A stretch of DNA of 49,386 nt, from the sequence record SRR31156797_898. One strand, written 5' to 3'. The notes beneath the pieces were generated by a model. The model made no database searches. It had not been told where the DNA came from and saw only the letters and a list, made by a program, of their open reading frames with translations. Positions 28,147-49,195 of the stretch are shown piece after piece; position 1 is the stretch's first letter; each line of letters starts with the position of its first letter. The translations under genes and the position numbers were made by a program.

Positions 28147-28841
28147 TGGTCGTTACCTCGATTAACTTGTTCTGATTGTTTAGGTCTATTGCCTAGCTGC
28201 GCAATTCGATTGAATATAGAACCATTGCGATACTTACTTGGGTCAGGAACGCCAGCTCGTTCTCTTGCGATATCTGTTGGCATCACTACCGACTTTGGAG
28301 GAAGCGCTGGAACATCCTGAGGAATATCACCAGCTGAAAATCGCTTAACCCATTTGTCGAAAACTTTCTTAAATGCCCGTTCATCATCACCAATTGCTCT
28401 GAGCTTAACGTTTGCATGTACAGCATCGGTAAATACGAGTTTTTCAAAGTGATTGCTTGGCTTAGCGTTCGCCATGAATCGCTCGAAGCAAGCAGAAAAA
28501 TCAAACCCGAGATTTCGACAAGCATCGATAAACTCTGAAAGCGTTGGAGGCCAGCCGTTAGCTGAATCAATCAATACTTTCGCCATTCCCTTTCGAATTT
28601 GATCAACAGTAAGAACACTAAGACCTTGCTCCCATGTCGCGGGTAGAGATTCTGACGACCAACGATTCAAGTAAGCCTCACGGAACTTGGTATTAACCCA
28701 ATCCGCTACCGTCAACTGGATTAATTTCCCGTTCGATCGGTGCGGAAGCATGTCCGTACTTGGCGAGCAACCTCTCGTTGTATGCGTCGATTGAATTTGG
28801 CTTGTAGCCTGATTCAGTAACTCTTGGTTGATTTTCTTCAT
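28143..28841 (-). CDS. Replication protein P-like
   Basis: WPPTLSEFIDACR motif; follows the initiator. Confidence 0.75.
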   Translation of the reverse strand: MKKINQELLNQATSQIQSTHTTRGCSPSTDMLPHRSNGKLIQLTVADWVNTKFREAYLNRWSSESLPATWEQGLSVLTVDQIRKGMAKVLIDSANGWPPTLSEFIDACRNLGFDFSACFERFMANAKPSNHFEKLVFTDAVHANVKLRAIGDDERAFKKVFDKWVKRFSAGDIPQDVPALPPKSVVMPTDIARERAGVPDPSKYRNGSIFNRIAQLGNRPKQSEQVNRGNDQ

Positions 28842-29517
28842 GTGGGTCGTTCCATCGCTCGTTATTCAGGTACGTTGTTGCATGCAGCTTGTCGAAGCCG
28901 AATTGCTTTCGCTTGATACGTTCAGAAACATCGCTAACCAGCATTTCGGTAAATTCACTCACGGTTAGGTTTTGTTTTTTCAAAGCGGCTTTGAATGATT
29001 TCAGCGCGCCCTGCTTGTTCGCTTTGGTTGGGTAGGATTTCCAAAAGGTTTCAAATTCAGGAAAATCCAAATCACTTTTTTGTTTATTTTTATTACTACC
29101 AATCAGTACTTGTTTATTATCAGTACTTATTAGTGTCGGCTCAGCCAGATCTGGGTTAGCCTGATCTGGGTTAGACGTATTTGGCTCATCCTTATCCGTG
29201 TTATCCGTATCTGGCTTATCCGTAATAGGGTTATCAAATACTGTGTAATCAACGGTTCCGTCAGAGTGTTTCTTGGTAGATATAAACCCTTTGGACTTCA
29301 GTTCTTTTAGAATGCTGTAGATACCATCCCTGCCCGTTTTCTTTGCTGTTCCAACAGTGACTTTTTCCAACTGACTAGGACTAATAGACCAGTTATCTGG
29401 TTTTGATAGGATGTAGGAAAGCATCCCCATAGCCTGAAATGACAACAGTTTGTCTTCATAAACAGAGTTGGAAATGACGCTATAATTGCGCTCTCTTTTT
29501 GCCCGTATAATGCTCAT
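28693..29517 (-). CDS. Replication initiator (O-like)
   Basis: N-terminal LSFQAMGMLSYILSKPDNW HTH; FETFWKSYP and HATTYLNNERW; internal iterons. Confidence 0.9.
   Translation of the reverse strand: MSIIRAKRERNYSVISNSVYEDKLLSFQAMGMLSYILSKPDNWSISPSQLEKVTVGTAKKTGRDGIYSILKELKSKGFISTKKHSDGTVDYTVFDNPITDKPDTDNTDKDEPNTSNPDQANPDLAEPTLISTDNKQVLIGSNKNKQKSDLDFPEFETFWKSYPTKANKQGALKSFKAALKKQNLTVSEFTEMLVSDVSERIKRKQFGFDKLHATTYLNNERWNDPHEENQPRVTESGYKPNSIDAYNERLLAKYGHASAPIEREINPVDGSGLG
29060..29240. repeat. Replication origin: iterons plus AT-rich tract
   Basis: gatctgggttag x2 and ttatccgt x3 within the initiator gene, next to an AT-rich stretch. Confidence 0.7.
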
Positions 29518-29537: not shown

Positions 29538-30005
29538 CTATCTGGCTCTGTAAACTCTGATGGTCGCTAATTTGCTCGCGATAATCTTCGCAGCAGCCTC
29601 GATAGCAGCAGCCTTGATCGCCTTAGCCTCTTTGCTGTCGATCATTTGGTCATCTGCGAGAGCTTTTGATATTTCGACATTGACTTCACCTAGTGCCGCC
29701 ATTTCACCGATCTGAATTTCGCTGAGCTCTTCTTGGTCAAGTTCGAAGTCGCCAATAGGAATGAACAAGCCGCCGCGTAAACTTGCACGGTATTGTGCTA
29801 AAACGTAGGTTCCTGCATGCAGTTCCATCGCTTCTAAATCGTCATCATCAAAGAATCGGCAACCGTTACGTTCGTAAAGCTTGTTGTTGAAGGTGGTTTC
29901 AGACATACCAATAGCGCCAGATAAAGCACCGCGCCCACCTTTGGTGTGCTTGATGATCTCTTTAACCACTTCTTTCTTGGATTCAAAAATAGCTAACATA
30001 ATCAA
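29538..30005 (-). CDS. CII-like / YmfL-family regulator
   Basis: FNNKLYERNGCRFF motif; position after cro. Confidence 0.8.
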   Translation of the reverse strand: MIMLAIFESKKEVVKEIIKHTKGGRGALSGAIGMSETTFNNKLYERNGCRFFDDDDLEAMELHAGTYVLAQYRASLRGGLFIPIGDFELDQEELSEIQIGEMAALGEVNVEISKALADDQMIDSKEAKAIKAAAIEAAAKIIASKLATIRVYRAR

Positions 30006-30286: not shown

Positions 30287-30357
30287 ACTATAACCCACAG
30301 GTAATATAAAATTCAATACCCACAGGGAATTTACCTACAGGTTAATAGTGATAAAAT
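30287..30357. promoter_or_regulatory. OR region: three 16-bp operators, PR (minus) and PRM (plus)
   Basis: ATAACCCACAGGTAAT 30290-30305, AATACCCACAGGGAAT 30315-30330, TTTACCTACAGGTTAA 30330-30345; PR TTGAAT-N18-TATAGT; PRM extended -10 TGaTAAAAT. Confidence 0.85.
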
Positions 30358-30363
30358 CTTTGT

Positions 30364-31044
30364 ATGGATATTTATGAAATTAGGCGTCAGCGCCTACTTA
30401 AGCTGAAAGACGAAAGGTGTAACGGTAAGATTGTTACGCTTGCAGAGAAAATCGACACATCTCAATCTTACGTGTCGAGGATGCTTTATTCCCCAGACAA
30501 AGTAGGAAAGAAAAATATATCTGATGTAATGGTTCAAAAAATTACTGATGCTTTTGGGCTAAACAAAGGCTGGCTAGATGGGATTGACCATGATGAAGGA
30601 TTGAATAACGTAACTAGGTTAGATATCCAGCCATCATACAAAGATAAATACCCAATTCTAGGGAAAGTATCAGCCGGTAGGTTCAAGGACGCAGTGCAAA
30701 CATTTGACTTAGAGTATGAGCAGAGCACCGTTAAATGCAGTAATGATTCATTCTGGCTTGTTGTAGACGGGCATTCAATGACAGCACCTCAAGGATCTGG
30801 AATCTCATTTTTAGAGGGTATGCTGATACTGGTTGATCCAGAACGCGAATACTGTCATGGAAATTTTGTCGTTGCTTACTGTGAAGATAAACATATGGCG
30901 ACATTTAAAAAAATCAGCATTGAACCGGAAGGAGTATTTTTGGTTCCTCTTAATCCAGATCCGACTTATAGACGCATAAACATGGCTGACGAGTACTGTG
31001 AGGTTGCAGGAGTAGTTGTCGATGCCAGGTGGAAGATGTTTTAA
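30364..31044 (+). CDS. cI: CI repressor (HTH + S24 peptidase)
   Basis: N-terminal HTH; VSAG cleavage site, VDGHSM Ser motif, ATFKK Lys motif. Confidence 0.95.
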   Translation: MDIYEIRRQRLLKLKDERCNGKIVTLAEKIDTSQSYVSRMLYSPDKVGKKNISDVMVQKITDAFGLNKGWLDGIDHDEGLNNVTRLDIQPSYKDKYPILGKVSAGRFKDAVQTFDLEYEQSTVKCSNDSFWLVVDGHSMTAPQGSGISFLEGMLILVDPEREYCHGNFVVAYCEDKHMATFKKISIEPEGVFLVPLNPDPTYRRINMADEYCEVAGVVVDARWKMF

Positions 31045-31450: not shown

Positions 31451-32149
31451 TTATGCAACAGTAGCTTTAAGAATCCCGAAATCAATTAGCTTTTTCGTCA
31501 ACCACTGCTCACCCTTACCCGTAATTAGCGGCGTGTGGGAAATTCTTGTTTCCCCATTGGCTTCATAGCTCCCCTGTCTCACTTGGAAGTATCCGCGCTC
31601 AATAAACTCTTGGAATGGTAGGTTGTGACGCTCACCGCCAGCCATTAAGATCTTTATTTCTCTAAGTATCGAAAATATCTTGCGAGGTCCAAGACCTACA
31701 GATTTAGCAAAGTTCCCTAACTGAACGCCCTTATCTGCTGATGCTATGCGATCAGCAAATTCAGCCTTAGGTGCAGCTATGGCAAGTTGTCTTTGGGTTT
31801 CTTCGTTCTGTTTCGCAAGCTCAGCGGCAAGCAGTAAAGCTTCTGGAAGTGTTTGAGGGATTTTGAATTGATTGGCTTCTTCAAGTTCTTGCCATCGGTC
31901 TACGAGACGAGCCGTAAATTCTGGTGATAGTTGAGCAACAACAACGTAACTATCTCGCTTAGTAACATGGTAGATGGTTATTGGCTTTCCGCCTCCGGCG
32001 GTCGGTTCCACCGTTGGTGTAATCGAAATAACTAGGCTCGATGCCATTCTCTCCATTGATCGCTTAACGCTGTCATGACGAGAGTTGGTAAGCTCCGCAA
32101 TCTCGCGGCTGCTCATGGTTAGATTTTGGTCGTGTTTAATCATATTCAT
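31451..32149 (-). CDS. Antirepressor (Rha N-terminal + KilA-C/ANT C-terminal)
   Basis: LTMSSREIAELT, PEFTARLVDRWQELE, IPQTLPEALLLAA, APKAEFAD, ITGKGEQWL. Confidence 0.92.
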   Translation of the reverse strand: MNMIKHDQNLTMSSREIAELTNSRHDSVKRSMERMASSLVISITPTVEPTAGGGKPITIYHVTKRDSYVVVAQLSPEFTARLVDRWQELEEANQFKIPQTLPEALLLAAELAKQNEETQRQLAIAAPKAEFADRIASADKGVQLGNFAKSVGLGPRKIFSILREIKILMAGGERHNLPFQEFIERGYFQVRQGSYEANGETRISHTPLITGKGEQWLTKKLIDFGILKATVA

Positions 32150-32241
32150 GATTGTTTCCTTCTATGAAATATTAAAGAACGGTGCCCCTAACGCTTTTGG
32201 TCGGTATTACGCTTTGAAAGCGATCGATAAGGACAGGATCA

Positions 32242-32274
32242 ATATTAATTTCATAACACTGGTTATTCAACCAG
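32242..32274 (-). promoter_or_regulatory. Antirepressor promoter overlapped by a LexA box
   Basis: CTGGTTATTCAACCAG (CTG-N10-CAG) at 32259-32274 over minus-strand TTGAAT-N17-TAATAT. Confidence 0.7.
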
Positions 32275-32297
32275 TTTAGCGATCATTTATTAACCAC

Positions 32298-32420
32298 CAG
32301 AAACCAAAAAGCCCGCATAAGCGGGCTAATCGGGTGACGAACCGACCAAGGCAACGTCACGAAGGTAACAACCAATGAATATCATTCATTAGCTTGTGGG
32401 CCACGACCAAGCAACCCACG
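32298..32420 (-). ncRNA. Candidate sRNA-1 (three UUGGUYG motifs plus terminator)
   Basis: Hairpins with motif-bearing loops; minus-strand terminator agcccgc-ttat-gcgggct-tttt; -10-like TACTAT upstream; paralog at 34642-34790. Confidence 0.6.
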
Positions 32421-32479
32421 CAGGTATAGTAACTCAATGAATATCTTCGTTCCACAAATCCAATAATTTTTATGATACC

Positions 32480-32503
32480 TACCGTCCTAGTGGCGGTTTT
32501 TTA
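32480..32503 (+). terminator. Intrinsic terminator upstream of pL
   Basis: accgtc ctagt ggcggt followed by a T-tract. Confidence 0.7.
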
Positions 32504-32542
32504 TGCCTGAAAATTAACCCAGTAAATTTAAAATAAAAAAAT

Positions 32543-32586
32543 ATTACCTTGAGGTATTGACATAAAATATAACCCGCAGGTAATAT
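32543..32586 (+). promoter_or_regulatory. pL promoter with two OL operators
   Basis: TTGACA 32557-62, N18, TAATAT; operators ATTACCTTGAGGTATT 32543-58 and ATAACCCGCAGGTAAT 32569-84 match the OR sites. Confidence 0.85.
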
Positions 32587-32608
32587 CAACCACATCAACA
32601 CGAAACAC

Positions 32609-32621
32609 CGCTCTTTAACAA
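32609..32621 (+). promoter_or_regulatory. boxA antitermination site
   Basis: CGCTCTTTAACAA, the lambdoid/rrn boxA consensus, shortly after the pL start. Confidence 0.85.
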
Positions 32622-32639
32622 CTTGCACCATGAACGATT

Positions 32640-33717
32640 ACCAGTAGTTCGGAATTGCCGAACAACTGGAGGTCACTCCGAGTAACCCAGTGACGGAGGA
32701 CAGAAATTCACTGAAATAGACCTTATTCACCGCTACGGCGACCGGATGTAATGACCTATAGATAATGGGATTTGCACTTGCTGGATGGCTTAACCGAGAG
32801 GATGACCCGATAAGTGAATAAGCCCCGCCAGTCTCGGCGGTGAGGTAGAGACAAAATAGGCTTTGGAAACAGAGCCGATTTGAAAGTGGTCTGTAGTTCA
32901 CTGGTAGAACGACGTTAGCCACGTTGCCAAAGAACGCATGACGGTAGCACCTGAAATGTAATCTTTGGGGGTATGCATGCCTATGATGGTTCAAATCCAT
33001 TCAGACCACTTTCAAATAATCCGAGTTTTCTTGCTGTGATAAGCAGATAGAAAACAAATCTGACTCCGATAATTCGGGTGTGAAGCCAACACATAAAAAT
33101 ACAAAACCTTACTCAGTTGGGAGTAAGCCCAGTAATCACATATAGGTGAAGTGCATTGGCAGTGCGCTGAAAAAGAGCTGGCATCCCGAACAAAGGACGA
33201 AATGTCTCGGATTATTACTAAAGGTGTTTCGGTGAGTGGTTGGAAAATTCCATTAACTGTATAAGTTTTGAAAATTTCAAATAGTCAACCACTCAGCCGA
33301 AGCATCTTGGACATGCTGATATCCATAGACGGTATACGGTGTAGCCATCGGTAATCCGCGCCAGTTCACCACTGCACTGGAAGCTGTAAGCTTAGGTCGT
33401 GAATTAAACCTAAGACGTAGACGAGCAGTAATAATGCTACGGAATGAGCGAGGGATCCTTAACTTCGTGATCATTATGGCGGCGGGAAAGACCGCGAGAT
33501 AATGGGACTTCATCGCCGAAACTCTAAATGAGCATGATGGACGTGTGATTCGAAGCCAGCAACGAGAAGGGCTTGGTCTAAATTGTACAACCCGTGATGG
33601 GGAATGAATCAATCTGACACCTCGGAAAGACGGGGGATTTTGTTTAGTGGTTTTGGACGCGTCGATCAGCAGGGAAACCGTAAGGCTAGGAGCCATCTTT
33701 AAACCACTAAACAAAAT
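32640..33717 (+). ncRNA. Array of structured non-coding RNA modules
   Basis: No plus-strand ORF in the track; consecutive modules closed by 9-22 bp stems. Confidence 0.65.
32878..33017 (+). ncRNA. Giant tRNA-like RNA
   Basis: 16-bp closing stem, D-arm gttc-actggta-gaac, T-arm gatgg-ttcaaat-ccatt, ~75-nt central insert, no encoded CCA tail. Confidence 0.65.
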
Positions 33718-33719
33718 AT

Positions 33720-33791
33720 GCTTCGTTAGCTCAGTGGTAGAGCGGACGGCTTTTAACCGTTAGGTCGCAGGTTCAAATCCTGCACGAAGCT
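33720..33791 (+). tRNA. tRNA-Lys(UUU), variant
   Basis: Full cloverleaf gcttcgt/acgaagc; anticodon arm gacgg-CTTTTAA-ccgtt; T-arm gcagg-ttcaaat-cctgc; 3' TTCA rather than ACCA. Confidence 0.88.
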
Positions 33792-33798
33792 TCAGTTT

Positions 33799-33883
33799 GC
33801 CCCGTATGCCAACACTAGCCTTCTAAGCTAGTACGTAAAAAGTTGGAAGGACGTGAGAGGTTCGATTCCTCTACGGGGTGCCA
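33799..33883 (+). tRNA. Non-canonical tRNA-Arg(UCU)-like RNA lacking a D-arm
   Basis: Acceptor gccccgt/acggggt plus GCCA; T-arm agagg-ttcgatt-cctct; anticodon arm actagc-CTTCTAA-gctagt. Confidence 0.7.
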
Positions 33884-33909
33884 GTTAAACAGCAATTAAG
33901 GATTTAGTC

Positions 33910-34380
33910 ATGGAGATTGATTGGAAGTATTTCAGCCAAACTAATGGCTACAAATCTTTGAAATCTGCTTATATGCGCGATGTTAAAAAAGCTGGCAACG
34001 AAAAGCGTCCAATGCGCAACAAGGATGAATTTTACAAGCGCTTTCAATGGGTAATTAGTCGCTGCATCCATTATGCACATGCACTGAATAAGAAACCTTG
34101 GGAAGTTTTGGATGATTGGGAATCTAAGCGTGATTATTGGTGGTTTAGTTTCTACCAAGATTCAAATCAACGGAAGATTCGAACGGAATCTATATCTCGC
34201 AAACCAATGCATATCAGAGGCATTAAGAAGTATTACAAAAGTGGTCACTTTCCTGATTCAAACACAAGAGTAAACAAAAGAATTGGCGATCACCTTAGAA
34301 GTAAGCGAACTAAAAAGCCTCGTTGGACACCAGAACGCAAAGCTAGACGAGATAAAGCAGCTAAATACAAGAATCTGTAA
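33910..34380 (+). CDS. Basic hypothetical protein
   Basis: 156-aa Lys/Arg/aromatic-rich ORF with AAGGA SD; first protein gene of the pL operon. Confidence 0.75.
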   Translation: MEIDWKYFSQTNGYKSLKSAYMRDVKKAGNEKRPMRNKDEFYKRFQWVISRCIHYAHALNKKPWEVLDDWESKRDYWWFSFYQDSNQRKIRTESISRKPMHIRGIKKYYKSGHFPDSNTRVNKRIGDHLRSKRTKKPRWTPERKARRDKAAKYKNL

Positions 34381-34600
34381 GTTAGAACCTCGAAGGGAAA
34401 GCGCTCATTTGGACGAACAGGTAGAGCTAAGTAATCCTGTTGTGAGCAAGTACCAGATTGGCTGGGGAAAAGCATCTGAACTCTAATAATGATGTGTAAT
34501 ATCCGCCTTGTGTAGACAGAGTAAACCGATACCAGAACACGCCCTCTCTGCTAACGAGATGTCTGTTGTTCTAACACGGCGCTGGTATCAAACCAATTTT

Positions 34601-34631
34601 AATAAACCCACCTCTGAGTGGGTTTTATTTT
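34601..34631 (+). terminator. Intrinsic terminator
   Basis: aaacccac ctctga gtgggttt followed by tatttt. Confidence 0.7.
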
Positions 34632-34641
34632 CAAAAGGCTA

Positions 34642-34790
34642 CAGAAACCAAAAACCCCGCATAAGCGGGGCAATCAGGGAGCGGGTAACGACCAAGAAAC
34701 ACGCTCCATGCTGCTTTCGCAGCGAGGTAACGACCAATGAACACTCACGTTCACCAGCCAGCAAGCCGCGACCAAGCGGCTTACTCATCG
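34642..34790 (-). ncRNA. Candidate sRNA-2 (three UUGGUCG motifs plus terminator)
   Basis: Same architecture and near-identical terminator tail as 32298-32420. Confidence 0.6.
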
Positions 34791-34808
34791 AAAGGATACA
34801 GTAAATGA
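34737..34808 (+). CDS. 23-aa leader ORF coupled to the next gene
   Basis: GAGGTAACGACCA-ATG start; MNTHVHQPASRDQAAYSSKGYSK*; stop overlaps ATG 34805. Confidence 0.45.
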   Translation: MNTHVHQPASRDQAAYSSKGYSK

Positions 34809-35191
34809 ATATTCTTAGTCTAGTTCCAGAAAATGAAGAATCCGCGCTTAACGCTTATATCGACAAAGGAATTGTCCGCATTAAGTCAAACCGAGAGTCT
34901 TGCGGTCTCACTATCACCAGCTTTGTGGACTGGATGTTTGAGCAGGATTTACCTCGTCGTATGGTTGTTGGCCTTGTTCGTGAAGTAATGGCAACACAGT
35001 TTGATCCTCAAATGAGTAGCCACAAACTTATTCCCCTTGAGAACTTCCAAGACAATTTTGGCGATCTTCTAAATCAGTTCATCGAAGAAAACAAAGTAAA
35101 AATAAAAGATGGATATGCAGCCGAAAAGAAGCAGCAATTCGAAAACGACCTAATCACTCAATTTGAGCAAATCCAACTATCAAATTACTGA
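34805..35191 (+). CDS. Hypothetical protein
   Basis: 128-aa ORF with AAGGA SD, upstream of bet. Confidence 0.7.
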   Translation: MNILSLVPENEESALNAYIDKGIVRIKSNRESCGLTITSFVDWMFEQDLPRRMVVGLVREVMATQFDPQMSSHKLIPLENFQDNFGDLLNQFIEENKVKIKDGYAAEKKQQFENDLITQFEQIQLSNY

Positions 35192-35202
35192 GGTAACGAC
35201 CA

Positions 35203-36033
35203 ATGAGTAACATTACATCATTCGAGGAGCGCCACCCCGCTGTATCAAAACGAGGGATTGATGAATCAACGTGGTCAGCGCTGAAGAATAGCGTTTATCC
35301 GGGCGCTAAAGAAGAATCCATCTTAATGGTTATCGACTACTGCCGCGCTCGTAACTTTGACCCTCTTCTAAAGCCTGTCCATATCGTTCCTATGAATGTT
35401 AAGAACTCGCAGACCAACAACAATGAATGGCGTGATGTTGTTATGCCTGGCATTGGTATGTACCGAATTCAAGCAGATAGAAGTGGTACATATGCAGGTT
35501 CAACAGAACCAGAATTTGGTCCACTTGTTTCTATGGATTTTAGGGGCGAAGGAAACCAAGTAGAAACCATCAATTTCCCTGAGTGGTGCAAAATCACTGT
35601 TTACAAAGTCGTTAACGGCAACCCAGTTGCTTTTTCTGCTAAGGAAATGTGGCTGGAAAACTACGCAACAGCTGGGCGAAACACTCAAATCCCAAATGCC
35701 ATGTGGAAAAAGCGGCAATATGCACAGCTGGCTAAATGTACCGAAGCACAAGCACTACGTAAGGCATGGCCTGAAATTGGTCAGCAAGCTACTGCTGAAG
35801 AAATGGAAGGGAAAGATTTGATCATTGAGCATGATGTATCACCAACCAAGTCTCTTCCAAATCAAGCAACTAACTACTTACAAGCTGACTTTGATAAGAA
35901 TTTCGATAAGTGGAAAGAGCTTATCGAGTCAGGTCGTAACACACCAGAACGCATCATTTCTATGGCTGAATCAAAAGGCAAGATGACAGACGAAATGAAA
36001 GCAAAAATTAAGAAGATTAATCAGGAGCAATGA
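35203..36033 (+). CDS. bet: Single-strand annealing recombinase (Bet/RecT family)
   Basis: DYCRARNFDPLLKPVHIVPM, YRIQADRSG, QLAKCTEAQALRKAWP. Confidence 0.92.
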   Translation: MSNITSFEERHPAVSKRGIDESTWSALKNSVYPGAKEESILMVIDYCRARNFDPLLKPVHIVPMNVKNSQTNNNEWRDVVMPGIGMYRIQADRSGTYAGSTEPEFGPLVSMDFRGEGNQVETINFPEWCKITVYKVVNGNPVAFSAKEMWLENYATAGRNTQIPNAMWKKRQYAQLAKCTEAQALRKAWPEIGQQATAEEMEGKDLIIEHDVSPTKSLPNQATNYLQADFDKNFDKWKELIESGRNTPERIISMAESKGKMTDEMKAKIKKINQEQ

Positions 36034-37775
36034 TCATGAAAGTATCAAACGTTAAGTTTCACAACGTTCAACAAGGAACGCCTGAGTGGCATGCTCTTCG
36101 TGACTCTGTTGATTTCACTGCTTCTGAAGTTTCTGCGGCTCTTGGGTGTTCACCATATAAAACACGCGATCAGCTGATGCATGAAAAAGCGACCGGAATT
36201 AAACCAGAAGTATCAAGTTATCAAGAAAAGATATTTGCTGATGGTCACCGCTTTGAAGAGTTTGCTCGAGCGATTCTAGAAAACCGCTTAGGTGAAGAAT
36301 TGTACCCAACGACTATCACTGGTGAATGTGGTGGACTTACCCTACTCGCTTCGCTTGATGGTTTAACCATGGATGGCGTTTTAGCTTTTGAGCACAAGTC
36401 ACCAAACAGCAAAGTTGTTGCTGCTATCCATGCTGAAAAACTCGATGACCATTACAACTACCAAATGGAGCAGCAACTTCTTCTATCTGGTGCGGCATCA
36501 TGTAAGTTCGTTGCTAGTGACGGCACAGAAGATAACTGGAACGAGCTTGAATACAAACCAAACAAAGCACTCATTAAGAAAATGCTTGCAGGTTTAAAAC
36601 AGTTCAAAGCCGACTTAGAAGAATACAAAACCAAGCTTGCTAATGGTGAAGTTTCTCAACAGTCTAAACCTGAAGTCGTTGCAGAAGTCATTCAAGACCT
36701 TCCTGCTATCAGCTACAAGATGAACGGCCTAGCGATTAACAGCAACCTCGAAGAGTACAAATCAAAAGCACTCGAATTGGTTGAGCAATCCAAGAAGAAG
36801 CTGGAAACAGATCAGGACTTTGCCAATGCTGAAAACATGGTCAAAGTATTTAAGTCTGCCGAGGATAAGCTAGGTTTAATGTCTCAGCAGGTACTTGGTG
36901 AAGTTGAAAGCATCGATAAGTTTGTCAAAGACCTTGGCTTTATCAGCGAGAACATTCGTCAAGCCCGTCTAGGTTTAGATAAGCAGGTGAAACTTCGCAA
37001 GGAAGAGATTAAAACCGAGATTGTTGTTGCGGCTAAGAACGAGCTCAATACTCTTATCAACGAAGCATCAACCAAGTACAACGTTAGATTCAATATCACT
37101 GCTGACTTTGCTGGTGCCATTAAAGGCAAACGCAACATCGAAAGCATGCGCAGCGCCATTAGTGAAGAGCTAGCGAACGCTAAGATCACCCTTTCTGAAC
37201 AAAAAGATATTGTTCAAACCAACCTAGACCACGTTAAACAGCATCAAGAGTATAAGTTCCTGTTTAATGACTGGTCGGTTATTGCTTTTAAACCTGCTGA
37301 TGATTTCCAGACTTTGGTTAAGCTTCGCATTTCTGAGCATAAAGAAGCTGAAGAGAAGCGACTAGAGCAAGAGCGTGAACGTATTCGCCAAGAAGAAGCC
37401 GACAAGGCCAAGCTTGAAGCAGAAGAAAAGACCAAGCTCGAAGAGGCTGAAAAGCTAGCCTGTAGCTCTAACGGATCAATTGCTGAAGCTCAAAGACTTG
37501 GCAAGGCAGAATCACAACTTACTCATGAAGTTGTTCAGCAATCTACCACTCAACCAAGCCGACTAGACCAAGCTCGTCAAGTAATGCAACAAGCAGAAAC
37601 GGCTCCAGTTGCTTCTGTTGAACGCGCAGAACGTTCAGACGAAATGATTAGCTTATCTGTGAAAGAGTACAACGAGCTAATGAGTAAAGCTAACTTACTC
37701 GAAGCCCTGTACGCAGCTGGCGTTGATAACTGGGATGGATACAGTGAAGCCATGGCAATGGTTTCTGCGGCATAA
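36030..37775 (+). CDS. YqaJ/lambda-Exo-type exonuclease with long coiled-coil extension
   Basis: QGTPEWHALR, TASE, GHRFE, ASLDG, FEHK and YQMEQQL motifs. Confidence 0.9.
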   Translation: MIMKVSNVKFHNVQQGTPEWHALRDSVDFTASEVSAALGCSPYKTRDQLMHEKATGIKPEVSSYQEKIFADGHRFEEFARAILENRLGEELYPTTITGECGGLTLLASLDGLTMDGVLAFEHKSPNSKVVAAIHAEKLDDHYNYQMEQQLLLSGAASCKFVASDGTEDNWNELEYKPNKALIKKMLAGLKQFKADLEEYKTKLANGEVSQQSKPEVVAEVIQDLPAISYKMNGLAINSNLEEYKSKALELVEQSKKKLETDQDFANAENMVKVFKSAEDKLGLMSQQVLGEVESIDKFVKDLGFISENIRQARLGLDKQVKLRKEEIKTEIVVAAKNELNTLINEASTKYNVRFNITADFAGAIKGKRNIESMRSAISEELANAKITLSEQKDIVQTNLDHVKQHQEYKFLFNDWSVIAFKPADDFQTLVKLRISEHKEAEEKRLEQERERIRQEEADKAKLEAEEKTKLEEAEKLACSSNGSIAEAQRLGKAESQLTHEVVQQSTTQPSRLDQARQVMQQAETAPVASVERAERSDEMISLSVKEYNELMSKANLLEALYAAGVDNWDGYSEAMAMVSAA

Positions 37776-47810: not shown

Positions 47811-47996
47811 ATGCCAAGAGCAGCCGTGATCACGCTTAAAAAACACGCCTCCGATATCGGTTATAGCCCGAAAACAATCACCAATCGAATTCACGAAGGC
47901 TATTACCCTCCCGGAATATTTTACAAAGACAAAGGCCAGTGGCTAGTAGATACTGAGGAATGGGATAGATGGCACCGAAGCAACAACAAGCACTAG
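47811..47996 (+). CDS. xis: Excisionase
   Basis: 61-aa winged-helix-like ORF overlapping the int start. Confidence 0.75.
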   Translation: MPRAAVITLKKHASDIGYSPKTITNRIHEGYYPPGIFYKDKGQWLVDTEEWDRWHRSNNKH

Positions 47997-49195
47997 ACTT
48001 GCCAACCGGCATTGAACTTAACGGCAACTCACTTCGAATAGTTTTCCACTATCTTGGTAAACGATACCGAGAAACGTTAGGAATACCAGCTACTAAAAAG
48101 AACATCACATTCGCCAAGCAAAAGCGCGAGTCCATTCTTTATGAAATAAAGGTTGGATCATTCAACTACGCTTACCACTTCCCAAATTCAAAGCATGCTA
48201 CAGGCAAACCTCGTTCTAAGGACATTGGAGAACTTGCTGAAACCTATCTTGCTAGTAAGAAGCCAAACGTTAGAGGATCAACATTCAGGAAGTATTCCAC
48301 CGTATTACGTACATTCGTTTCAATTTACGGAAGCAAGCGACACTGTAACACCCTGTCACCTAGATCACTTGAGCAGTTTAGAAACGAACTAGCAGCAGGA
48401 AGAGCGGCTAGAACCGTCAACCGATACCTTGTCACAATAAAGTCTTTCATTAATTGGCTGCACAAAATGGAATACACAGATAAAGACTTCTCTCATCATT
48501 TATTAAGAGTGAAGGAGTACGAGTCTGATATTCGGCCGTTCTCAATTGATGAGTTTAACCAGGTGATATCGACGTATAGACACGAACAGCACAAGAACAT
48601 ATTTACGCTATTCGTTTATACAGGCCTTCGCTCTGGTGAATTGTGCGCGCTTGCTTGGGAAGATGTCGATTTTGATAAGAAGACAATCACCGTTAGGCGA
48701 TCAACCTATGACAATCGAGGCTTGAAAACGACGAAGACGGATAAGGAGAGAGTTATTGATTTGATGCCACCAGCTTATGAGGCACTAAAGTCTCAAATGA
48801 AACTCACATACCTTTACCCGGTAAAAAATCACGATGTTGAACTCCCTGATAAAACATTCAGGAAAGATAAGATCCGCTTTGTGTTTAATCCAAAAGCGGT
48901 GAAGCATCAAAAAGGCAGTGAATTTGATTACTATTGCAAACATGCATTAGGTAGAAGTTGGAGATTGCACTGTAAGCAAGCTGGAGTTGAACATCGGAAC
49001 CAATACCAACTTAGGCATACTTACGCCAGTTGGATGATTACCTTTGCCAACGTAAACGTGAGTTACTTAGCTCAACAAATGGGACATGCAAACATAACCA
49101 TGATCGCCAAGGTCTATGGTAAGTGGCTGACTGAGGCCAACAAGAAAGAGTCAAATAGGGCGTGGGAGGAATTGAAGAAAAGCCATAATTTATAA
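47969..49195 (+). CDS. int: Tyrosine integrase with arm-binding N-terminus
   Basis: YTGLRSGELCALAW, YQLRHTYAS, QMGH..VY; N-terminal LRIVFHYLGKRYRETL. Confidence 0.97.
   Translation: MAPKQQQALDLPTGIELNGNSLRIVFHYLGKRYRETLGIPATKKNITFAKQKRESILYEIKVGSFNYAYHFPNSKHATGKPRSKDIGELAETYLASKKPNVRGSTFRKYSTVLRTFVSIYGSKRHCNTLSPRSLEQFRNELAAGRAARTVNRYLVTIKSFINWLHKMEYTDKDFSHHLLRVKEYESDIRPFSIDEFNQVISTYRHEQHKNIFTLFVYTGLRSGELCALAWEDVDFDKKTITVRRSTYDNRGLKTTKTDKERVIDLMPPAYEALKSQMKLTYLYPVKNHDVELPDKTFRKDKIRFVFNPKAVKHQKGSEFDYYCKHALGRSWRLHCKQAGVEHRNQYQLRHTYASWMITFANVNVSYLAQQMGHANITMIAKVYGKWLTEANKKESNRAWEELKKSHNL

Follow-up and report, generated by a model that had tools for sequence, protein, structure and literature searches.

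To our knowledge, every antisense RNA so far reported from phages (c4, sar, OOP and the CI RNA of P4) acts on one locus. In the immI region of phages P1 and P7 (c4-icd-ant), the small structured c4 RNA is encoded directly upstream of the anti-repressor gene and on the same strand, and each of its two loops is complementary to a separate site in the leader and start region of the downstream ant gene. That c4 is an antisense RNA serving immunity is stated in the accessible text of PMC12197685. The available part of a review describes IsrK of Gifsy-1 as a terminated short RNA upstream of orf45-anrP which also exists as a read-through mRNA. Salmonella IsrB (RF01386), encoded by Gifsy-1 and Gifsy-2 antisense between two genes of the early-left operon and immediately before the recE/recT module, was seen on Northern blots and by primer extension as species of 88 and 94 nt, according to the accessible portion of PMC2330248, which gives no function for it. 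A different kind of element is found in the Cluster K mycobacteriophages, where start-associated sequences precede 13-19 non-structural genes across phages with different gene content, and where the authors left both an RNA and a protein partner possible (PMC3203893, PMC11373665, PMC12699233). The function of these sequences has been open since 2011 (PMC3203893) and is still called unknown in the available parts of the papers from 2024-2025 (PMC11373665, PMC12699233); no complementary RNA is described in the accessible text of the three. In phage Anaya (Cluster K), the single reverse-oriented start-associated copy lies in a hairpin loop.

The DNA examined here is a 49,386-nt stretch of sequence record SRR31156797_898 (the window), and all features are placed by its positions. 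An earlier reading of this stretch (the original prediction) had proposed two paralogous minus-strand small RNAs with a shared architecture, and every feature that it listed for them was found in place:

32298 to 32420, minus strand: element 1, a putative ~120-nt small RNA (hairpin 1, hairpin 2, anti-Shine-Dalgarno stretch, hairpin 3, terminator)
32396 to 32419, minus strand: element 1 hairpin 1, loop UUGGUC running into UUGGUCGUG
32370 to 32394, minus strand: element 1 hairpin 2
32361 to 32377, minus strand: element 1 central anti-motif, CAUUGGUUGUUACCUUC
32334 to 32360, minus strand: element 1 hairpin 3, stem GUGACG/CGUCAC, loop containing UUGGUCGG
32298 to 32327, minus strand: element 1 intrinsic terminator with U-rich tail (stem 32310-32327, then UUUUUGGUUUCUG; terminator scan)
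34642 to 34790, minus strand: element 2, a putative ~140-nt small RNA, antisense to the early-left operon leader (128-aa gene, recT, recE)
34760 to 34785, minus strand: element 2 hairpin 1, loop UUGGUC
34732 to 34759, minus strand: element 2 hairpin 2
34724 to 34739, minus strand: CAUUGGUCGUUACCUC, the central anti-motif of element 2, complementing the start motif exactly
34710 to 34723, minus strand: element 2 extra small hairpin
34679 to 34707, minus strand: element 2 hairpin 3, stem GGAGCG/CGCUCC, loop holding UUGGUCGUUACC, a second anti-motif copy (12 nt)
34642 to 34671, minus strand: element 2 intrinsic terminator with U-rich tail (stem 34654-34671; terminator scan)
34793 to 34828, minus strand: putative promoter-like hexamers of element 2 (TAGACT, 18 nt, TATCCT), situated where the 128-aa gene has its ribosome-binding site and first codons

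Both elements are predicted to fold stably on the minus strand (element 1, -57.0 kcal/mol, z -6.4; element 2, -68.9 kcal/mol, z -5.1), with 0/200 shuffles equalling either value. The loops and the anti-Shine-Dalgarno stretch are predicted to be unpaired in both (P ~1.0; 1.0 for the hairpin 1 loop of element 1), and hairpin 2 sequesters the anti-AUG half of the central segment. In element 1, the 5′ half of CAUUGGUUGUUACCUUC is paired within hairpin 2 and the 3′ GUUACCUUC is single-stranded. The terminator regions form a 37-nt direct repeat of 89% identity and were found on the minus strand only, much as the claim of near-identical terminators had it. Paralogy of the two elements is supported, and covariance model R1 scores them at 111.8 bits (element 1) and 121.4 bits (element 2).

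Related elements were aligned from two phage groups, A and B, giving 13 distinct elements, 25 pairs and 325 pair cells. Cells were paired in 98.2% of cases against 82.6% in shuffled alignments (0/500 shuffles reached 98.2%), with at most 54% paired in slid controls, and the covariation score was 0.545 against 0.259 shuffled. Both sides had changed in 13 of the 25 pairs. For instance, hairpin 1 of the relative L039 shows a compensatory U-A to C-G change, and six different stem sequences of hairpin 3 enclose the same loop. The covariation suspected from the two copies alone is borne out by these counts, and the elements have the conserved secondary structure with compensatory changes that marks a bacterial small RNA gene. 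Moreover, an intrinsic terminator on the RNA strand is kept in all 13 relatives. As for promoters, the promoter-like hexamers of the original prediction are present in the sequence, but they are weak matches and a consensus promoter scan returned no passing site for either element. A -10-like TATNNT stands 6-8 nt before hairpin 1 in 12/12 correctly anchored elements (a count that leaves out the mis-anchored 13th row, L081); it overlaps the sense-gene ribosome-binding site, which could be an alternative reason for its conservation.

A pattern scan of genome contigs yielded 32 matches in unrelated phyla, about the chance estimate, and a metagenome contig scan with another pattern yielded 5 chance matches, none in either scan with the element architecture. 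Neither element type was matched in the E. coli genomes or in the named phages. Among the latter, Klebsiella phages have the closest RecT relatives, and a search with model R1 in locus L135 of one of these, Mulock, gave no match (E up to 1).

The sequence to which the elements are complementary is a start-associated sequence, (G/A)GGTAACGACCAATG, which is the ribosome-binding site of ~10 early genes serving replication, recombination and methylation:

35192 to 35205, plus strand: start motif at recT, an example of the ~10 motif-bearing starts
28146 and 29517, minus strand; 35203, 37814, 38080, 39088, 40111, 41624, 46043 and 46580, plus strand: motif-bearing starts

The start at 29517 is that of an O-like gene, and the 128-aa gene and cI are without the motif. 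In the window, GGTAACGACCAATG with up to 2 mismatches has 10 matches against 0.23 expected, and CGACCAA occurs 18 times against 4.74 expected. The exposed loops and single-stranded stretch are complementary to a genuine start motif, as had been claimed; of the dozen motif-bearing genes envisaged, the over-representation stands and the count comes to ~10 early genes. The motif is found at 7-11 sites in each of five group A relatives, compared with 0-1 for a control pattern. Group B relatives have a different motif, AGGACTGACCAATG, at 8-10 sites per genome, and their element carries the matching CAUUGGUCAGUCCUU; that motif and central anti-motif agree in both groups, A and B, follows automatically from the motif copy on the element's own sense strand. 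The loops of group B match only the 6-7-nt core of the motif.

A check against start regions, proposed in the original prediction, was run as a scan of short segments, since whole-RNA duplex prediction was uninformative (long spurious duplexes dominated). When the 17-nt central segment of element 2 was set against 19,744 windows, the 13 best were all motif sites, at -20.8 to -30.5 kcal/mol against a background with a mean of -7.1 and an sd of 2.7.

A closer inspection of the surroundings of element 1 placed it at an anti-repressor gene:

31451 to 32149, minus strand: ant, an anti-repressor gene (232 aa) that follows directly after element 1 (phrog_63, E 4.7e-80)
32197 to 32205, minus strand: site A in the leader of ant, ACCGACCAA, ~50 nt before the AUG
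32126 to 32134, minus strand: ant site B, CACGACCAA, coding nucleotides +16 to +24

The ant AUG lies 150 nt beyond the end of element 1. CGACCAA occurs just three times on the minus strand in 49 kb, and two of these copies flank that AUG. Each of the two extends to a 9-nt complement of a separate element 1 loop: the hairpin 3 loop UUGGUCGGU is complementary to site A in the leader, and UUGGUCGUG of hairpin 1 to site B in codons 5-8. A crude oligo energy scan with the loops of element 1 did not single out these sites: site A came 13th, and the 14 best listed did not include site B. Upstream of 10 other ant homologues (50-66% identity) lies coding sequence, with no such element. Both the adjacency to ant and the two loop-specific complements had been missed by the original prediction, and its contrast with single-locus antisense RNAs needs qualifying: the arrangement of element 1 and ant is of the P1 c4 kind, and this part of the system is single-locus.

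Element 2 is perfectly complementary to the intercistronic leader that it overlaps, upstream of the 128-aa gene, recT and recE. The sense transcript for it to oppose would come from a candidate promoter:

32557 to 32586, plus strand: candidate early-left promoter (TTGACA, 18 nt, TAATAT), in which the operator-like sequence of cI/cro is repeated

Close by is a gene for a CI-like repressor, which supports the original prediction on the presence of CI. The earlier reading had also passed over element 2 as a probable cis-antisense RNA of the early-left operon, its IsrB-like position and the sequence blocks that it appears to share.

Given these positions and complementarities, we put at about an even chance the reading in which the elements are genes for antisense RNAs that block early-gene start regions in a lambda-like temperate phage. 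Small, highly structured antisense RNAs would be transcribed from the minus strand, each ending at its own intrinsic terminator and each presenting UUGGUC (a YUNR-type loop) in two apical loops. In each RNA a single-stranded anti-Shine-Dalgarno stretch, GUUACCUC, would adjoin the partly sequestered anti-AUG. In the cell the RNAs would most likely pair with the start regions of the ~10 early genes and block ribosome loading, so that these genes would be held down in the lysogen or timed after infection. Element 2 would in addition pair with the leader that it overlaps, and element 1 would repress ant through the two loop-specific 9-nt sites flanking its start codon, as P1 c4 does. Action in trans on all motif genes is what the shared complementarity suggests, and one RNA family may in this way switch off a whole early-gene set at once. 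The loop, for its part, may be conserved for another reason, e.g. kissing its own sense hairpin or binding a protein, because Gifsy-2 IsrB has the same loop and yet Gifsy-2 is without the start motif.

A purely local role for real RNAs is possible, if on balance unlikely. Element 2 would then act only on its overlapped leader (processing of, or interference with, the early-left transcript), element 1 would be a c4- or IsrK-like leader RNA acting on ant only, the motif would be an independent translation signal and the anti-motif resemblance would arise only from a motif-led mini-ORF on the sense strand of each element. It fits such a role that element 2 and its relatives are always antisense in the same intercistronic place of the early-left operon, as IsrB is in Gifsy-2, where there is no repeated start motif, and that neither ant site, A or B, coincides with a ribosome-binding site of the motif type. 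The mini-ORF is ATG-led in 11/13 elements, and the one in the window has a stop codon overlapping the 128-aa gene start; mini-ORF length is not conserved (5, 7, 8 or 23 codons). However, its start is ATA in the relatives G002 and G003, where pairing of the anti-motif is nonetheless preserved: the three substitutions seen within the 14-nt core of the anti-motif (C to U in element 1; a C to U shared by G002 and G003; and, in G003, A to G) all keep pairing via G·U. The full anti-motif is also kept in element 1, which is without an expected sense transcript, and a mini-ORF does not explain the second anti-motif in the hairpin 3 loop of element 2. Moreover, group B has a separate second locus, free of ORFs on both strands, where a single-stranded 16-nt anti-motif is bounded by two terminators of the same strand.

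The plus strand might instead be the functional one, its early-mRNA leaders presenting GACCAA to a motif-binding protein or acting as nut/put-like antitermination sites, which we consider improbable. The motif copies in the elements are indeed oriented like the downstream plus-strand genes, element 2 is preceded by a plus-strand terminator which early transcription must pass, and in group B the motif of a 118-aa gene is directly preceded by a small hairpin that has GACCAA as its loop. The folded RNA is nevertheless the minus strand, because 72/325 helix cells are G·U, which the plus strand would turn into A·C mismatches, and hairpin 2 could not form there. The minus-sense strand has the more stable fold in 13/13 elements, with the plus strand 8.5-27 kcal/mol less stable, and G·U pairs number 96 among 582 on the minus-sense strand against 8 among 484 on the opposite one. 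The terminators work on the minus strand only, and the early-left promoter would not transcribe the plus strand of element 1, because element 1 lies upstream of it. The minus-strand polarity first proposed from the terminators is thus strengthened by G·U-rich covarying helices and by related elements in other phages. That the clustered GACCAA direct repeats (three per element) are protein-binding sites on DNA, of the operator, stoperator or iteron kind, is very improbable, even if the motif follows the direction of transcription throughout the genome as stoperators do: its fixed register to the ATG and its Shine-Dalgarno core point to translation, compensatory changes and G·U pairs are unexpected for DNA sites, and the separate operator-like repeats ACCCRCAGG... 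are better candidates for repressor sites.

Returning to antisense RNAs that block early-gene starts, a wider reading can be put forward only tentatively: that temperate phages of at least two groups possess an early-regulon ribosome-binding-site 'barcode' read by dedicated antisense RNAs, which would gate the translation of ~10 genes and the anti-repressor, with the motif variants GGTAACGACCAATG and AGGACTGACCAATG as RNA-level immunity specificities between phages. If true, lysogeny maintenance, timing or exclusion between phages would here follow a different design, with one RNA family reading a regulon-wide start motif.

The motif is over-represented, asymmetric, located at non-structural starts and conserved across related phages, and it resembles the Cluster K start-associated sequences in standing directly before the ATG and in being longer than a Shine-Dalgarno site. 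The two differ in motif sequence, host phylum and phage type. By analogy, the same barcode logic may explain the Cluster K sequences, and the elements would, if the reading is right, be the first concrete, testable partner for start-associated sequences.

Element 1 is like c4 of P1 and P7 in lying upstream of ant on the same strand, with loops complementary to two downstream leader and start sites. Unlike c4, it has its own terminator before ant and no icd-like coupled ORF, and it has a paralogue elsewhere and an anti-ribosome-binding-site stretch matching ~10 other genes. The Rfam C4 antisense RNA family, presumably RF01695, was absent from the 11 Rfam matches at E up to 10 in 32100-35000 on both strands. 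In its link to an anti-repressor, the locus is also like P22 sar, which is cis-antisense to the ant ribosome-binding site, and like IsrK of Gifsy-1, which activates rather than represses; both are small RNAs controlling anti-repressor expression, as far as the available text of the sources goes. Element 2 scored 15.7 bits against Rfam isrK (RF01394), for a cut-off of 50, and was rejected as a member.

Element 2 shares the position of IsrB, being antisense in the early-left operon upstream of a recE/recT module. IsrB is without hairpins 1 and 2, unlike the elements, but the Gifsy-2 copy has the same loop sequence, and IsrB and element 1 have three blocks in common in the same order (UGGUUGUUA, loop UUGGUCGGUU and terminator GCCCGCUU). 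Homology to IsrB is established by neither covariance model: Rfam isrB scores element 1 at 24.5 bits and its relatives at 21.2-24.5, below the cut-off of 35 (true IsrB, 99.3), and in the reciprocal search R1 found no IsrB match at E up to 1. Outside the IsrB locus, Gifsy-2 holds one 9-mer complement of the IsrB single-stranded block, about the chance estimate. The elements may also offer a lead on the function of Salmonella IsrB, a detected small RNA at the same genomic position.

The window represents a temperate phage or prophage of lambda-like type, and at the DNA level it best matches Vibrio anguillarum phages, over short stretches. Its features, including the two candidate minus-strand small RNAs (elements 1 and 2), are as follows.

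Features of the window (coordinates, strand, description)
~125 to 30267, minus: structural, late and replication genes
28693-29517, minus: O-like gene
29538-30005, minus: cII-like gene
30364-31044, plus: CI-like S24 repressor gene (cI)
31451-32149, minus: ant, anti-repressor gene between cI and the early-left operon (phrog_63, E 4.7e-80)
32298-32420, minus: element 1
32557-32586, plus: predicted strong promoter (TTGACA, 18 nt, TAATAT)
32878-32893 / 33002-33017: perfect 16-nt inverted repeat, enclosing a second tRNA-like sequence with a ~50-nt insert
33637-33653 / 33701-33717: perfect 17-nt inverted repeat
33720-33791, within 32597-33900 (plus): tRNA-Lys(UUU)
33798-33880: tRNA-like sequence (tRNA-Sec model 31.5 bits, cut-off of 47 not reached)
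33910-34380, plus: 156-aa ORF, phrog_24749 (no assigned function)
34642-34790, minus: element 2
from 34805, plus: 128-aa gene, first of the early-left operon
35203-36033, plus: RecT-like gene, early-left operon
36030-37775, plus: RecE-like gene, early-left operon
47969-49195, plus: integrase gene

Three copies of ACCCRCAGGKAATWTM were found, two between cI and cro (30293-30308 and 30318-30333) and one within the predicted promoter (32572-32587); these are probably CI operators, defining the early-left promoter. CGCAGGTA (32416-32423), which resembles this repeat more weakly, overlaps the putative -10 region of element 1. No convincing ORF occurs in the ~1.3 kb of plus strand that follows the promoter with the operator copy (32597-33900), a stretch that could form a long structured RNA or serve as a put-like region for antitermination; part of it (33027-33192) shares 82% identity with unannotated DNA of V. 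anguillarum phages. The 156-aa ORF, missing from the corresponding place in the nearest relative (G004), has a plus-strand terminator at 34604-34625, immediately ahead of element 2, so that plus-strand transcription meets a stop right before the element. Another plus-strand intrinsic terminator (32481-32497) lies just past element 1; neither a gene nor a promoter is obvious ahead of it on that strand.

The start motif GGTAACGACCAATG, with up to two mismatches, matched the window 10 times against 0.23 expected. With the shorter variant GGTAACGACCATG counted too, the motif stands at about ten gene starts: 28146(-), 29517(-), 35203, 37814, 38080, 39088, 40111, 41624, 46043 and 46580. Annotated genes among these encode an O-like replication protein, RecT, a DnaQ-like exonuclease, two DNA methyltransferases and a recombination exonuclease. 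The motif was not found in the ribosome-binding sites of cI, ant or the 128-aa gene, nor at any gene start in the late/structural region of the window. Start-associated sequences are also described in Cluster K mycobacteriophages, where passages of PMC3203893, PMC11373665 and PMC12699233 call their function unknown. Anaya (L150), a Cluster K phage, has a single reverse-oriented copy close to its right genome end (record ~59849-59906). On the gene-sense strand this copy is placed in the apical loop of a long hairpin (z -2.66), a possible parallel to the anti-motif RNAs of the window.

The original prediction held that both elements display the complement of the start motif (the anti-motif) within one shared architecture, and all the features it described are present at inspection of the sequence. 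On the minus strand, both run in the order hairpin 1, hairpin 2, a single-stranded anti-Shine-Dalgarno stretch, hairpin 3 and terminator. In both, the hairpin 1 loop is UUGGUC, the hairpin 3 loop contains UUGGUCG, and hairpin 2 pairs the anti-AUG half of the 16-17-nt start-motif complement; a small additional hairpin occurs in element 2 only. The loops and anti-Shine-Dalgarno stretch are predicted to be unpaired. The minus-strand polarity read from the terminators was upheld by a terminator scan, which called both on that strand only, and the two terminator regions are 89% identical over a 37-nt repeat. Both minus-strand RNAs fold much more stably than their shuffles, with z-scores of -6.4 (element 1) and -5.1 (element 2).

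Structure was assessed on 13 distinct sequences. The suspected covariation was borne out over 25 pairs (RNAalifold and pair counts), with 98.2% of cells paired versus 82.6% in shuffles and 24-54% in slid controls. Both sides changed in 13 of the 25 pairs, and covariation was 0.545 against 0.259 shuffled, a value reached by 0/500 shuffles. G·U pairs fill 72 of 325 pair cells; these become A·C mismatches on the plus strand, so that hairpin 2 in particular exists on the minus-sense strand only. The minus-sense strand is the more stable in 13/13 elements and carries 96/582 G·U pairs versus 8/484 on the opposite strand, a contrast that is partly base composition since G and U abound in the minus-sense strand. 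In hairpin 3, which is not alignable across groups A and B (phages with the window's motif type and with another motif, respectively), the loop stays the same on six different stem sequences. Taken together, pairing, covariation, G·U content and strand stability point to a folded minus-strand RNA under selection, and the elements are very probably minus-strand structured RNAs.

Relatives were sought in IMG/VR by DNA patterns and by searches for Ant and RecT relatives. Near-identical copies were recovered, as were diverged copies of element 1 (L039) and element 2 (G005, G002, G003). The group A motif occurs at 7-11 places in 5/5 related phage records (G002-G006; control pattern 0-1). At loci L077-L083, whose RecT is 57-59% identical, the same element sits in the same place with a different motif, AGGACTGACCAATG, which defines group B and recurs at 8-10 places per record in 5/5 group B records searched (control 0-3). 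Among 65 Ant/RecT loci (L047-L111), the group A motif and element were found together in 10 and the group B pair in 7. GTAACRACCAA was absent from the remaining 48, and no element was found in a subset of these (10 ant upstream regions, three RecT loci, and 20 loci by covariance model). At the level of sequence, these results confirm the original observation and widen it to a family with members in two phage groups.

Element 1 is always accompanied by ant (window, G006, L003, L039/L067). L067 has a mosaic joint at 2290-2500: it nearly matches the window through element 1, the ant leader and about 20 initial ant codons, and Ant beyond them has only 31% identity, which suggests that RNA, leader and start region move as one module. 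Group B carries a second anti-motif locus (G009:25283-25370, L137; likewise in G007, G008 and G011), in which AUUGGUCAGUCCUCA lies single-stranded between two tandem same-strand terminators without an ORF; G011 has compensatory changes within the second stem. This locus looks like a minimal seed-plus-terminator sRNA. Three group A records (G002:53479, G005:13056, G006:16426; L115, L123, L126) hold GAGTAACGACCAAAC, a sense-orientation motif without ATG that directly precedes a sense-strand terminator and adjoins the 3' end of a tRNA-like sequence. Such sites, absent from the window, might work as an antisense-RNA sponge.

Element 2 and its relatives are antisense to the early-left operon, within an intercistronic region, and the RNA's terminator loop contains the end of a small plus-strand ORF in G002 and G005. 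Given this position, pairing with the early-left transcript would be automatic if both strands are made. For ant, only three minus-strand CGACCAA sites exist in 49 kb and two of them flank its AUG, an arrangement within a 150-nt stretch that has a chance of ~3e-5 by a rough hand estimate. The flanking ACCGACCAA is a 9-nt complement of element 1 loop 3, and CACGACCAA (+16 to +24) is a 9-nt complement of loop 1. Two loops facing two ant-flanking sites is the arrangement of P1 c4.

Moreover, every motif-bearing start has complementarity to the central segment of element 2 and to its hairpin 3 loop, and the best 13 of 19,744 windows scanned are all motif sites. The RNAs may act on this whole motif regulon, a reading we hold with evenly divided confidence; its main rival, action in cis and on ant only, seems to us less likely. 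For trans action, the anti-motif is kept in element 1 though a sense transcript is not expected there; the ATG-led mini-ORF on the sense strand varies (5, 7, 8 or 23 codons) and has lost its ATG in G002 and G003; and the separate group B anti-motif locus is ORF-free. All three anti-motif-core substitutions also retain pairing via G·U (p ~0.003-0.01, our own estimate from few events). Against it, agreement between motif and central anti-motif across groups A and B is automatic, group B loops match just a 6-7-nt core, and IsrB, the Salmonella Gifsy-2 sRNA, has the same loop, yet Gifsy-2 is without the start motif.

In an Rfam search neither element matched a known family at gathering thresholds. 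The C4 model gave no match and isrK reached 15.7 bits, short of its cut-off of 50. Passages of a 2025 phage small-RNA review (PMC12197685) describe sar, c4, IsrK, 24B_1 and OOP, all of them directed at single loci. In a full-text literature search, no RNA with complementarity to a start motif shared among genes was found, although one could still exist in print. Below threshold, the isrB model gave 24.5 bits for element 1 and 21-24.5 bits for relatives; true IsrB scores 99.3 bits. The covariance model of the element family did not recover IsrB, and membership in isrB is therefore not established. IsrB occupies the same position as element 2, being antisense in the gap from STM1010 to the exonuclease VIII gene of Gifsy-2, and has three ordered blocks in common with element 1. 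The element family would be a variation on phage antisense-RNA control, of clear interest for phage RNA biology.
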